Position numbers and translations under genes: made by a program. Of a stretch of DNA of 64,000 nucleotides, positions 3,130 through 63,513 are shown piece after piece. Numbering within the stretch: the first letter of the stretch is position 1; every line of letters starts with the position of its first letter. Source of the stretch: Candidatus Saccharimonadales bacterium. Lineage in GTDB: Bacteria; Patescibacteriota; Saccharimonadia; Saccharimonadales; OMJO01. The notes beneath the pieces are model-generated. The model worked only from the letters and a program-made list of their open reading frames with translations. It was not told where the DNA came from and made no database searches. The stretch covers positions 137,323 to 201,322 of the forward strand of contig DATIID010000001.1 of NCBI GenBank assembly GCA_035480035.1. Direction: 5' to 3'.

Positions 3130-3171
3130 CTGATCAGTAGAAGTATACCTAAAAATACTACATTTAACACC

Positions 3172-3201
3172 TTGCTGCCGATTGCTAAATCGGACTACAA
3201 T
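3172..3201 (+). promoter_or_regulatory. sigma70-like promoter, leaderless-type geometry
   Basis: TTGCTG (3172-3177), N18, TACAAT (3196-3201), then only 8 nt to ATG 3210 with no SD. Confidence 0.45.
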
Positions 3202-3209
3202 ACCATGTA

Positions 3210-4094
3210 ATGCCAATCATTCAACTCAAAGACGTATCCAAACTATACGGCTTCGGCGATGCCACTAACGTGGCACTCGAAGAAATTAACTTGGATGTTA
3301 ACCGAGGTGAGATGGTGGCCGTTATGGGGCCGAGCGGTTCTGGCAAGTCAACTCTGATGAACATTATTGGGTTACTCGACCGACCGACTCATGGTGAATA
3401 TTACCTAAACGGTCGGTCAGTGTCCCGCTTGCGACCCAACCAACAAGCCAAATACCGTCGGGATACCATTGGTTTTGTTTTTCAGTCATTTAACTTGTTA
3501 CCGAAATTAAATGTTTTAGAAAATGTTGCCTTACCGCTGACTTACAAAGGTATCACCCAAACTCGCCGCCTAAAACGAGCCTCGACGATTTTAGAATTGG
3601 TTGGCCTGCGCGACCGTGAATACTATATGCCCAAACAGCTTAGCGGTGGTCAAGCCCAACGGGTAGCTATTGCCCGCGCCTTAGTTAATAATCCTCATCT
3701 GATTATTGCTGATGAACCGACCGGTAATCTGGATAGTGAATCCAGCCGCTTGGTCATGGAGTTGCTCAGTGATATTCACGCTGATGGTAATACGATACTA
3801 ATTGTAACCCATAACCCAGAGGTCACACGGTTTGCTACTAGAGTAGTGTTTATGCGTGACGGCATCGTGGTGGCTGATGAACAATCAGCAATTGGCGAAG
3901 TCCCCAAAATGGTGCGGCGTAACCTTTACTTTCGTCCGCAAACTACGATTGATGATCAGCTTGCTGGTGTATCGAGTCTGATGAAAGCCTTGCCTCAAAA
4001 AGCTAATCCCAAAAAATTGGTTAAAAAACGCAAGCCCAGGTCCAAAAAAGCTACTTATAAACCGCGTGTCAAAAAAGCTAAGGCTCGAAACTAA
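3210..4094 (+). CDS. ABC transporter ATP-binding protein (MacB/LolD type) with Lys-rich C-terminal tail
   Basis: Walker A GPSGSGKST, signature LSGGQAQR, Walker B LIIADEPTGNLD. The tail reads KKLVKKRKPRSKKATYKPRVKKAKARN. Confidence 0.85.
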   Translation: MPIIQLKDVSKLYGFGDATNVALEEINLDVNRGEMVAVMGPSGSGKSTLMNIIGLLDRPTHGEYYLNGRSVSRLRPNQQAKYRRDTIGFVFQSFNLLPKLNVLENVALPLTYKGITQTRRLKRASTILELVGLRDREYYMPKQLSGGQAQRVAIARALVNNPHLIIADEPTGNLDSESSRLVMELLSDIHADGNTILIVTHNPEVTRFATRVVFMRDGIVVADEQSAIGEVPKMVRRNLYFRPQTTIDDQLAGVSSLMKALPQKANPKKLVKKRKPRSKKATYKPRVKKAKARN

Positions 4095-62038: not shown

Positions 62039-62064
62039 AAAAAAGTCCTTGGTAAACCAAAGAC
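62039..62064 (-). terminator. intrinsic terminator-like hairpin inside the rplJ leader
   Basis: Minus strand: GTCTTTGG-TTTA-CCAAGGAC followed by TTTTTT. The single non-Watson-Crick pair is G.U on the minus strand and C.A on the plus strand. Confidence 0.5.
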
Positions 62065-62144
62065 TTAAACATCATCAATAAATTTATGATTGCCTAGGCG
62101 ACATTATCAAGCTTTTGGCCGTCGCTGTCTTTGGTAACTGGTGA

Positions 62145-62708: not shown

Positions 62709-62726
62709 ACGTGCACTCCTTTCAAT

Positions 62727-62753
62727 AAAAAGCGGCCCTGGCGGGCCGTTTTT
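62727..62753 (-). terminator. GC-rich intrinsic terminator (symmetric, bidirectional-looking)
   Basis: AAAAAG-CGGCCC-TGGC-GGGCCG-TTTTT. It sits 19 nt upstream of the 62708 start codon. Confidence 0.55.
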
Positions 62754-62861
62754 AGTTTGTTGACAATATTCTCTAGGCCCGCAGCTTAGTGCTGGTAATA
62801 ATCGAGTTAATAATGATTATTTGAGCCACGAAAACTATATTGCTCTTTAAAGCTTGGGATG

Positions 62862-63137
62862 TCAACCTGCCGACTCTTCAACAGGTATGACTCTGATTTC
62901 TGATTGGCCGACTACACTACCAACTTGCCATGCCTGATGTGGTACATCCCACCGACTTCTTATTGTTTCTTGATGACTTCCGGTTCTAGTTACACCTGTA
63001 ATCGGATCGTAATCCAAAACCATAGTGTCAGGATCCACATCCATTTCTTCACTGGGCACAACCACTGGCTGTGCTTCTATTTTTTGATTATTTACAAACG
63101 GATCACCACTCCATTCGCCTCTTGCCCATATACTCAT
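62862..63137 (-). CDS. hypothetical protein (91 aa)
   Basis: AAGGAG SD 6 nt upstream. No family recognised. Confidence 0.45.
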   Translation of the reverse strand: MSIWARGEWSGDPFVNNQKIEAQPVVVPSEEMDVDPDTMVLDYDPITGVTRTGSHQETIRSRWDVPHQAWQVGSVVGQSEIRVIPVEESAG

Positions 63138-63154
63138 ATTTTTCTCCTTAAATT

Positions 63155-63180
63155 AAAAACAAGCTTCGTTGAAGCCTGTT
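63155..63180 (-). terminator. intrinsic terminator / attenuator hairpin abutting the RBS of 62862..63137
   Basis: Minus strand: AACAGGCTTC-AAC-GAAGCTTGTT followed by TTT (63157-63155), giving the run TTTTT with the stem's last two T, then AATTTAAGGAG. The one non-canonical pair is G.U on the minus strand and A.C on the plus strand. Confidence 0.5.
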
Positions 63181-63287
63181 ATTTTGGACTGTACTAGCGA
63201 GCTTTAGATGCTCGAGGCTTCAACCATACTGAAGCACAGCCCTTGAAGGCTGAGTAGGAGCTGACTTAACAGGTTGAAAACTTTCAC
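63181..63287 (-). promoter_or_regulatory. leader with alternative hairpins and a 27-codon GTG mini-ORF
   Basis: Segments 63235-63230, 63224-63216 and 63180-63168 can pair 1:2 or 2:3. Mini-ORF GTG 63287 to TAA 63204 (VKVFNLLSQLLLSLQGLCFSMVEASSI). Confidence 0.4.
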
Positions 63288-63294
63288 AAATTGA

Positions 63295-63345
63295 ATCGTA
63301 CCACCAAATTAAGCTATTGACAATAGCTAAGTTTGAGCGTACATT
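63295..63345. promoter_or_regulatory. divergent overlapping promoters sharing a palindromic -35
   Basis: Plus strand: TTGACA (63317-63322), N17, TACATT (63340-63345). Minus strand: TTGTCA (63323-63318), N17, TACGAT (63300-63295). 17-bp perfect palindrome AGCTATTG-A-CAATAGCT at 63312-63328. Confidence 0.5.
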
Positions 63346-63466
63346 CTATGCTCGTGAGTAATTTCAATCATCTTGCCAAGACTACAAGTAACCGTATGTA
63401 CGGTTTCATTGTAATTGGCTAATGATTGGAGTTCCGCGAGACTAAAAAAATAAGCAAATCAAATCA
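63346..63466 (+). promoter_or_regulatory. structured leader (long irregular hairpin 63361-63432) with a GTG mini-ORF
   Basis: Helices are 63361-71/63422-32, 63375-79/63415-19, 63383-87/63409-13 and 63390-95/63400-05. GGAGTTCCG (63428-36) can alternatively pair with the terminator 5' arm. Mini-ORF GTG 63354 to TAA 63422. Confidence 0.4.
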
Positions 63467-63499
63467 CCGGACTCCAAACCAAAGGAGTCCGGTTTTTTT
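63467..63499 (+). terminator. strong intrinsic terminator immediately upstream of an RBS
   Basis: CCGGACTCC-AAACCAAA-GGAGTCCGG followed by TTTTTTT, then AAGGAG and ATG 63514. Confidence 0.75.
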
Positions 63500-63513
63500 A
63501 AGGAGAAGCAAAA

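Follow-up and report, generated by a model that had tools for sequence, protein, structure and literature searches.

Leader-peptide attenuation has been described mostly in Proteobacteria and Actinobacteria, as a control of operons for amino-acid biosynthesis; trp is the textbook case, and the attenuators of the enterobacterial leu (leuL) and ilvGMEDA/ilvBN operons belong to the same group. In Corynebacterium glutamicum, leader peptides have been reported for trpE, leuA, ilvB, and aroF (PMC3890552), and the leader peptide IlvL of the ilvBNC attenuator is translated from a leaderless mRNA (PMC11857589). Similarly, mycobacterial polycysteine short open reading frames (ORFs), which are leaderless and begin with a 5' AUG or GUG, attenuate the operon downstream of them (10.1101/834739). 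The element described here lies on the minus strand of a 64-kb stretch of DNA (hereafter the window) from a Candidatus Saccharimonadales metagenome-assembled genome (MAG), directly ahead of an orphan gene for a protein of 91 amino acids (91 aa). It is most probably a ribosome-mediated (leader-peptide), leaderless transcription attenuator of the leu/ilv type, which senses leucine in this genome. An earlier note, made from the sequence of the window alone, had proposed ribosome-mediated attenuation of the 91-aa gene, and the proposal is supported by comparisons of the leader ORF, of RNA covariation, of the leaderless geometry, and of the control codons with the enzymes encoded behind them.

Structure of the Leader in the Window

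The leader consists of a promoter, a mini-ORF, and a chain of competing helices ending in an intrinsic terminator (Table 1). Every coordinate given in the earlier note proved correct on the minus strand, and its description of the mini-ORF (27 codons from a GTG, seven Leu codons of five kinds, a stop at 63204) was confirmed in the sequence, the Leu codons being CTG, TTA, CTC, CTA, and CTT. The leaderless geometry it had pointed out is also exact in the window, where the GTG begins 7 nt past the -10 hexamer TACGAT. The control run is followed by further Leu codons, CUU at 63248-63246 and CUG at 63239-63237, the latter invariant across the family described below. CUC is the rarest Leu codon in the long ORFs of the window (6% of Leu codons) and CUA accounts for 18%, so their use in the control run fits classical control-codon logic.

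The earlier note had described a trp-like switch made of four segments. The attenuator reading itself is supported, but the element is leu/ilv-like rather than trp-like, and the four segments are not the whole of it, since three conserved helices, H0, P1, and H3, were missing from that list. The claimed 3:4 terminator, which is also found by a terminator scan, has 10 bp with one G.U, a 3-nt loop, and the U run, and the claimed 6-bp pairing of segments 1 and 2 consists of six Watson-Crick pairs plus one G.U. The pairing of segments 2 and 3 is perfect, as claimed, but is a 10-mer and thus one base longer than the 9 bp first given. P1 is extendable to 10 bp (63242-63233 : 63195-63186) and encloses segments 1 and 2 as well as hairpin H3.

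Table 1. Features of the leader, of the gene behind it, and of two neighboring candidate elements (positions in the window).
Feature	Position	Strand	Details
sigma-70-type promoter	63295..63323	minus	-35 TTGTCA 63323-63318, 17-nt spacer, extended -10 TGgTACGAT (hexamer 63300-63295)
Leader-peptide ORF	63204..63287	minus	GTG 63287, 27 codons, VKVFNLLSQLLLSLQGLCFSMVEASSI, TAA 63206-63204
Control-codon run CUC CUA CUC (Leu10-12)	63252..63260	minus	Leu/Ile run in the same place in relatives
Helix H0	63237..63252	minus	CAGCCU 63252-63247 : GGGCUG 63242-63237; 5' arm directly after the control codons
Segment 1	63235-63230	minus	GCUUCA
Segment 2	63224-63216	minus	GUUGAAGCC
Segment 3	63180-63168	minus	AACAGGCUUCAAC
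Segment 4	63167-63158	minus	GAAGCUUGUU
Long-range helix P1	63186..63242	minus	GGGCUGU 63242-63236 : ACAGUCC 63192-63186; predicted by RNAalifold
Hairpin 1:2 (protector/anti-antiterminator)	63217..63235	minus	GCUUCAG 63235-63229 : UUGAAGC 63223-63217
Hairpin H3	63198..63214	minus	CGAGC 63214-63210 : GCUCG 63202-63198; mini-ORF UAA in the loop
Antiterminator 2:3	63168..63224	minus	GUUGAAGCCU 63224-63215 : AGGCUUCAAC 63177-63168, perfect 10-mer
Intrinsic terminator 3:4	63155..63180	minus	AACAGGCUUC-AAC-GAAGCUUGUU 63180-63158, U run to 63155
Putatively regulated gene	62862..63149	minus	Shine-Dalgarno AAGGAG 63149-63144, ATG 63137, 91-aa orphan ORF ends 62862
Candidate Att2	62865-62733	minus	TTGACA 62865-62860, 17 nt, CAATAT, 7 nt, GTG 62829; between the 91-aa and 180-aa genes
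Candidate Att3	63317-63513	plus	TTGACA-17-TACATT-8-GTG 63354; would serve the divergent 105-/147-aa genes

Within the window the arrangement is singular. When the 52 terminator-like hairpins on both strands were ranked by the longest perfect complement to the terminator 5' arm within the 120 nt upstream, this leader came first with 10 nt, the terminator of the L10 leader (used as a positive control) came second with 9 nt, and the remaining 50 had 7 nt or less. A descriptor requiring a terminator, an upstream complement of at least 8 nt, a mini-ORF ending there, and at least four Leu, Ile, or Val codons within six residues likewise returned this leader as its single match in the 64 kb. The minimum free energy (MFE) fold of the leader contains 1:2, the terminator, H0, and H3; the MFE z-score of the leader alone (-1.3) is unremarkable, which is not surprising in an RNA switch with competing folds.

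A perfect 11-nt inverted repeat links the core of the leader (GGCUGUGCUUC, 63231-63241) with codons ~20-24 of the 91-aa gene (GAAGCACAGCC, 63067-63077), and the P1 5' arm has a better complement in the coding-sequence copy than in the 3' arm of the leader itself. An invertible segment or a long-range pairing through this repeat was considered and rejected, as the repeat is kept in no relative (locus L027 has an 8-mer only) and the contigs are unbroken across it; it is treated here as a chance or lineage-specific feature.

Homologous Leaders and RNA Covariation

Leaders homologous to that of the window were detected first upstream of the three syntenic relatives of the 91-aa protein, and a profile of the four leaders then identified 11 further loci with the element upstream of rplJ in a sample chosen independently of the orphan gene, namely ~40 loci around L10-protein relatives in GTDB species representatives. 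The element is thus present in 14 other Saccharibacteria loci (15 with the window), all of them between thyX and rplJ. A profile hidden Markov model (HMM) of the 15 sequences together with a covariance model revealed no further strong members among the ~40 L10-anchored loci, and a search of JGI metagenomes with the leader core as a DNA pattern gave two chance matches only, both in GC-rich coding sequence.

The earlier note had named covariation of the alternative pairings as a check, and the covariation supports these pairings. In a MAFFT alignment of the 15 leaders (A3), evaluated with slide controls and 500 shuffles, the 2:3 pairing is 89.7% paired compared with 13-47% in the slide controls, and six of its 11 pairs show compensatory changes, a number reached by 1 of the 500 shuffles. 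All 15 loci retain this pairing, over 8-12 bp; for example, a G-C pair has become A-U in L006 and L009, an A-U pair has become G-C in L030, and a U-A pair has become C-G in L043. The helices that compete with it are conserved as well. P1 is 98% paired and 1:2 is 91.4% paired (94.8% for the two together), and H0 is 94.4% paired compared with 27-49% in slide controls. GGGCUG carries an A for a G in L026, and both of its partners, the H0 5' arm and the P1 3' arm, have changed to match. H3 occurs in all 15 leaders in unrelated sequences, with compensatory changes in all five modeled pairs, and the terminator hairpin with its U run is likewise present in 15/15 (-7.4 to -13.2 kcal/mol), three of its pairs being compensatory. 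Taken together in an alignment fitted to the covariance model R1, the terminated-state helices (P1, 1:2, H3, and 3:4) show 91.3% pairing and 43 compensatory cells, and their covariation score was reached by 0/500 shuffles. These figures are somewhat generous, since related sequences were used and this alignment is model-fitted.

L034 carries a diverged homologue of the leader (3159-3322, VCIIELMAHIFANNMTTLSLVINNLGLVARGEAK), where the P1 arms GGUCUUGUU/AACAAGACC are of wholly different sequence and still paired, and where 2:3 is formed by GGUGAAGCC/GGCUUCACC. No copy of the leader was detected in many close relatives (L011-L013, L019, L020, L022, L024, L025, L031, and others), which include those with the most similar L10 (72-77% identity), so that the element is patchily distributed. 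In the loci lacking it, the distance from the thyX-fusion gene to rplJ is 0.9-3.6 kb; L011 and L012 have no thyX-fusion in the fetched stretch.

Such a structure might also act as RNA alone, in the manner of a riboswitch or of a protein- or tRNA-binding leader, with the P1/1:2/H3 three-way junction as the sensor, 2:3 versus 3:4 as the expression platform, and the ORF as an incidental feature. An architecture in which a closed three-way junction precedes a terminator, with an internal strand complementary to the terminator 5' arm, is in keeping with this explanation, as are the position of the most conserved nucleotides (in P1 and 1:2 and not in the N-terminal half of the peptide) and a cargo that varies by lineage, which is also seen in some riboswitch classes. 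It is nevertheless improbable, given the absence of an Rfam match and, above all, the way in which the mini-ORF and the genes behind the leader have been conserved, as described in the following sections.

Conservation of the Leader Peptide

The reading frame of the mini-ORF, anchored by GGG-CUG-UGC-UUC (G-L-C-F), is open in 15/15 leaders over 24-31 codons, while the alternative frames 1 and 2 are each open in 1/15, and its stop codon lies just beyond segment 2 in every case (11/15 loci have it in the H3 loop, the remaining four at the 3' end of segment 2). The distances from start to anchor are 42, 45, 48, 51, 54, and 57 nt, all of them multiples of 3; a non-coding control spacer in the same leaders measures 8, 9, 10, 11, 14, and 17 nt. 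The leaders of L006 and L009 differ by a 3-nt indel and synonymous changes. The earlier note had asked whether the mini-ORF is kept wherever the hairpins are kept, and this holds for 15/15 loci, with length changes in frame only and with the branched-chain run at a fixed position. An ORF that was incidental to an RNA sensor leaves this frame, these in-frame lengths, and the fixed placement of the start relative to the -10 box and of the stop relative to segment 2 and H3 without an explanation.

The start of the mini-ORF is tied to the promoter in relatives as it is in the window. The layout of -35 box, 17 nt, -10 box, 7 nt, and start codon is found in 11/15 loci, with TAnnnT or TATAAC as the -10 hexamer and TTGTCA, TTGACA, or TTGCTA as the -35 hexamer, and the start codon is ATG in 13 loci and GTG in two. 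No purine-rich Shine-Dalgarno (SD) sequence is present between the -10 hexamer and the mini-ORF start in the homologous loci. This comparative evidence, the promoter-start spacing in 11/15 loci, supports the occurrence of leaderless translation of regulatory mini-ORFs in Saccharibacteria, and in the window the mini-ORF would be translated in the same way from the 5' end of the transcript.

A branched-chain run is found 4-6 codons before G-L-C-F in every leader peptide. It reads LLL in the window, L005, L006, L009, L014, L015, L017, and L029, and IIIL in L027, LIILL in L026, IIILL in L023, MIILL in L030, IPIISI in L037, LLQIII in L043, and SLLSL in L018. At the nucleotide level the run alternates between CUC/CUA/CUU (Leu) and AUU (Ile) codons at a fixed position, so that it is conserved as a Leu/Ile class while its nucleotides change, which argues against a sensor made of RNA alone. 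Apart from the run, the N-terminal half of the peptide is not conserved, and the conserved C-terminal half (GLCF-x-x-VEA) coincides with base-paired RNA (the P1 5' arm and segments 1 and 2). An anti-SD pairing (CUCCU : AAGGAG), which is present in the MFE fold, was considered as the cause of the conservation of the run and rejected, as six relatives have AUU runs without CUCCU; the switching between Leu and Ile codons excludes such a purely RNA-level reason.

Genes Behind the Leader

The 91-aa protein itself is almost without relatives. A word-seeded search of 5.8 billion proteins returned only the protein itself, an exhaustive HMMER search of 1.84 billion representatives returned two distant relatives, and a profile search added a third; all three (P0002-P0004) are syntenic, between thyX and rplJ. 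No match was found for the cargo genes of the window, the 91-aa gene included, in Pfam, NCBIfam, PHROGs, or PADLOC, and the genes that follow the leader in other lineages are unrelated to one another and mostly match no family. Two explanations of the cargo were considered and rejected, namely remnants of IlvA or isopropylmalate synthase (no significant tblastn match) and phage, defense, or other known families (no matches).

In three of the 15 leaders the downstream genes are informative, and in 3/3 the control codons match the enzyme that follows. In L037, the leader peptide MKRSYLIPIISITQLCF... (...LIPIISI...) precedes a small ORF and then the biosynthetic threonine ammonia-lyase IlvA (TIGR01124, 686 bits with a cut-off of 411). 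Similarly, the peptide ...ALLQIIINPRGLCF... (...LLQIII...) of L043 precedes a threonine-dehydratase-like, pyridoxal-phosphate-dependent (PALP) enzyme, and the peptide MRTNLLKQLLLSLNGLCF... (...LLKQLLLSL...) of L029 precedes an HMGL-like protein, the best match of which is 2-isopropylmalate synthase, below the equivalog cut-offs. Ile codons thus stand ahead of the enzyme that begins the Ile pathway, and Leu codons ahead of the one that begins the Leu pathway, a correspondence that an RNA acting alone does not account for.

These enzymes are solitary members of branched-chain pathways located between leader and rplJ (L029 2210-3379; L037 2206-3702, a full-length IlvA; L043 2577-3773). The isopropylmalate-synthase-like protein of L029 is short, and the enzyme of L043 has an N-terminal extension of ~75 aa with the motif AYAGYPxIQE, which small ORFs of L026 and L030 contain as well.

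The position of the element next to the rplJ-rplL operon in all loci, with a very small ORF alone intervening in several of them, could point to another role, in which a translation-coupled attenuator senses general translation capacity or ribosomes, or in which the terminated RNA of ~130 nt acts in trans. Initiation on leaderless mRNAs is dependent on 70S ribosomes (PMC9031893), the equilibrium folds point to read-through of the untranslated leader, and an attenuator RNA acting in trans has a precedent in rnTrpL (PMC6614838). This role is unlikely, however, as it leaves unexplained the fit of codon identity to enzyme in L029, L037, and L043; in addition, the branched-chain run is conserved and uses the rarest Leu codon, and rplJ has an L10 leader and a promoter-like site of its own. 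The last proposal, raised as an alternative in the earlier note and rejected here as very improbable, is that the product is a functional small hydrophobic peptide (a type I toxin or membrane peptide) with hairpins serving mRNA stability or translational control, for which speak a Leu-rich, moderately hydrophobic sequence and the family-wide GLCF-x-x-VEA, and against which speak an N-terminal half conserved neither in sequence nor in length, a C-terminal conservation explained by the pairing of its codons as P1 5' arm and segments 1 and 2, compensation at the RNA level (GAA to AAA with segment 3 C to U in L006 and L009, and GAA to GGA with U to C in L030), freely varying codons in the 1:2 loop (S/T/N/A and M/T/I/N/L), a hydrophobic run that switches between LLL and III as control codons would, and the lack of an antisense promoter within the ORF, of an evident antisense RNA, and of PADLOC matches for the neighboring genes.

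Proposed Mechanism of Attenuation

In the leucine-sensing attenuator, transcription would start at or next to GTG 63287, and the leader peptide would be translated from the leaderless mRNA. When charged tRNA-Leu is plentiful, the ribosome would reach the UAA in the H3 loop and cover segment 2, upon which the 3:4 terminator would form and transcription would stop at ~63155, ahead of the 91-aa gene. When tRNA-Leu charging is low, the ribosome would linger at CUC-CUA-CUC and at the later Leu codons, thereby covering the H0 5' arm and, farther along, that of P1 together with segment 1. The mutually exclusive chain H0 / P1 / 1:2 / 2:3 / 3:4 would then flip, segment 2 would pair with segment 3, and the formation of 2:3 would prevent the terminator, allowing RNA polymerase to read into the 91-aa gene.

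Decision-point folding, in which each of the 15 leaders was folded up to segment 3 with ribosome masks, agrees with part of this scheme. A ribosome placed at the stop codon covers segment 2 and so leaves 2:3 a probability of 0.00 in 15/15 leaders. The mean probability is 0.92 with the A site on the invariant CUG and 0.63 with the A site on the third codon of the run. In this model, it is a robust outcome that completed translation blocks the antiterminator and leads to the terminator, and that a ribosome held between the run and segment 1 leaves segment 2 free. Decision-point folding replaced full-length equilibrium folding with ribosome masks, the results of which were mixed and uninformative because the decision is kinetic.

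Several points weigh against this reading and temper its strength. The start of transcription, the translation of the mini-ORF, termination, the response to starvation, and the disruption of a helix by a stalled ribosome are steps that we infer from sequence, and GUG is a weak start on leaderless mRNAs in some bacteria. Even in the ribosome-free leader, 2:3 is favored in most sequences when the decision point is folded at equilibrium (mean probability 0.72). The control run lies upstream of the helices, the leading edge of a ribosome with its A site on the third codon of the run reaches only the first base of P1, and an equilibrium model of the full transcript keeps the terminator likely; a stall at the run thus barely reaches P1, so that the step from stall to 2:3 relies on the logic of the H0/P1 chain or on the later Leu codons. 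In the comparative evidence, the 15 leaders are related MAG and contig sequences, and the shuffle controls therefore overstate independence. As for the cargo, the 91-aa gene has no recognizable link to leucine. Saccharibacteria generally have a reduced biosynthetic capacity, and the cultivated ones are metabolically reduced and host-dependent (PMC6609349). What is unusual in this system is therefore that an amino-acid sensor precedes orphan genes that are not biosynthetic.

Two routes could carry a stall through to the antiterminator. In the first, masking of the H0 5' arm would give way to the 10-bp P1, which overlaps 1:2 by three pairs and would free segment 2; the product, P1 together with 2:3, would be a pseudoknot, which is beyond the evaluation of folding tools. 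In the second, the effective stalls would occur at the later Leu codons CUU and CUG.

Neighboring Attenuator Candidates and Locus Organization

The same design may occur twice more within 1.3 kb, on either side of the leader, in the candidates Att2 and Att3 identified from sequence (Table 1). The mini-ORF of Att2 (VAQIIIINSIITSTKLRA) ends with UAG 62775-62773, which follows GCGGGCC, a stretch complementary to the 5' arm of the terminator at 62748-62733; this terminator is followed by GAAAGGAG, a ribosome-binding site (RBS), and by ATG 62708 of the 180-aa gene. Ile-rich leaderless mini-ORFs occupy the position of Att2 in L005 (MTLIIIETTISTPITG), L006 (MALCISEGIITTP), and L009 (MATGISAGIIITP). 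The mini-ORF of Att3 (VSNFNHLAKTTSNRMYGFIVIG, ...YGFIVIG), with its stop at 63420-63422, lies within a very stable long hairpin (63351-63441, z about -7.5 to -8), the 3' arm of which also complements the 5' arm of a terminator located at 63466-63493; an RBS and the 105-aa gene follow this terminator. Mini-ORF (ending in ...YGLIIVPS or ...YGLIFVPS) and hairpin are conserved in L006 and L009. An origin of the minus- and plus-strand leaders by inverted duplication was considered and rejected, as their similarity is weak (nhmmer E 0.01-0.02; covariance model E 0.08) and is mostly due to the promoter palindrome that they share and to their identical RBS. The proteins encoded downstream are not paralogs either. 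In L015, a possible second attenuator (MTHNAIIKVIVCSLSARL, 3431-3539) lies between the two cargo genes.

A more tentative idea, on balance doubtful, is that the four lineage-specific orphans between thyX and rplJ form a small regulon for branched-chain amino acid (BCAA) starvation, in which the leader of the 91-aa gene (Att1) would sense Leu, Att2 would sense Ile for the 180-aa gene, and Att3 would sense Ile/Val for the 105- and 147-aa genes, the tRNA-charging sensors reading the supply from the host. If so, host-dependent Saccharibacteria would sense host amino-acid supply rather than tune biosynthesis, the read-out would control fast-evolving genes with a possible part in host interaction or scavenging, and the attenuator would be a conserved module with exchangeable cargo.

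The gene order of the locus is rplA, tmk, dcd, a tmk-thyX fusion, the orphans of 147 and 105 aa, the divergent promoter region, the 91-aa orphan, the 180-aa orphan, the L10 leader, rplJ, and rplL, the 147- and 105-aa orphans lying on the opposite strand and divergent from the 91-aa gene. The -35 box of the leader promoter overlaps that of the divergent plus-strand promoter, and the overlapping boxes are placed within the palindrome AGCTATTG-T-CAATAGCT (center 63320, region 63298-63342); the two promoters could possibly have a common repressor operator. The two ribosome-binding sites, at 63152-63142 and 63497-63507, contain an identical stretch of 11 nt, UUUAAGGAGAA. Relatives keep the TTGTCAAT core only. 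The L10 leader (RF00557, 62030-62152), the sole cis-regulatory Rfam family detected in the window, lies upstream of rplJ and ~1 kb downstream of the leader of the 91-aa gene, with its terminator at 62043-62066, and a promoter-like site (TTGAAT-17-TATAAT, 62173-62145) is located inside the end of the 180-aa gene. Three contigs from three different sequencing runs (L002, L003, and L004) share 63242 as their exact first position, which is the initial G of the P1 5' arm, whereas a fourth passes through this position uninterrupted. This pattern suggests a population variant or a branch point just upstream, in the coding part of the leader peptide.

Significance and Comparison with Known Systems

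Conservation is far stronger in the sensor than in its cargo, which ranges from enzymes resembling IlvA or isopropylmalate synthase to unrelated orphan ORFs. The element flags a set of "hypothetical" genes as putatively responsive to amino-acid starvation, its covariance model R1 lets annotators find further copies, and it offers a handle on the sensing of nutrient supply in ultra-small, host-dependent bacteria. In Rfam, no family, amino-acid leader families and the T-box included, matches 63130-63330 at the gathering score, and permissive filters gave chance-level matches only, the best amino-acid leader being Thr_leader with 16.9 bits (gathering score 55) at 62723-62822, on Att2. In the searchable literature, no paper was found that links attenuation or leader peptides, as regulation, to Saccharibacteria or the Candidate Phyla Radiation.

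The nearest described regulatory RNA in the same neighborhood is the L10_leader (RF00557), which is likewise a cis-acting leader with a terminator and an upstream complement (9 nt there); it is a separate element, however, binding protein (L10/L12) and lacking a leader peptide. The mycobacterial polycysteine ORFs share with the design proposed for the present leader a leaderless first cistron beginning with AUG or GUG and the principle that the codons of one amino acid set downstream expression, but the amino acid there is cysteine, whereas BCAAs would be sensed here, and a canonical terminator with a covarying antiterminator is present here.

The likeness to the enterobacterial leu and ilv attenuators extends to most of the design: a short leader ORF with clustered Leu/Ile/Val control codons, rare ones included, an intrinsic terminator immediately upstream of the first gene, a terminator and an antiterminator with one strand in common, an upstream protector helix, a fold that the position of the ribosome would decide, and a multi-helix chain such as that of the his, thr, and ilv leaders. 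It does not extend to sequence or covariance-model similarity. Unlike its enterobacterial counterparts, the leader ORF lacks an SD and presumably begins with the first nucleotides of the transcript, a three-way junction is closed by the long-range helix P1, a hairpin loop holds the stop codon, and the host is a Saccharibacterium in which the cargo is an orphan gene and not a biosynthetic operon. The ilvBNC attenuator of C. glutamicum has in common with the design proposed here the leaderless leader peptide, the BCAA control codons, and an anti-antiterminator/antiterminator/terminator logic of at least three hairpins; it belongs to another phylum, has no detected homology and a different cargo, and differs in its first hairpin, which covers the start codon; the first hairpin of the present leader does not, although that of Att3 does. 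These comparisons support a new RNA/leader-peptide family without an Rfam match, in a new phylum and with an unusual cargo, that operates by a mechanism already known.

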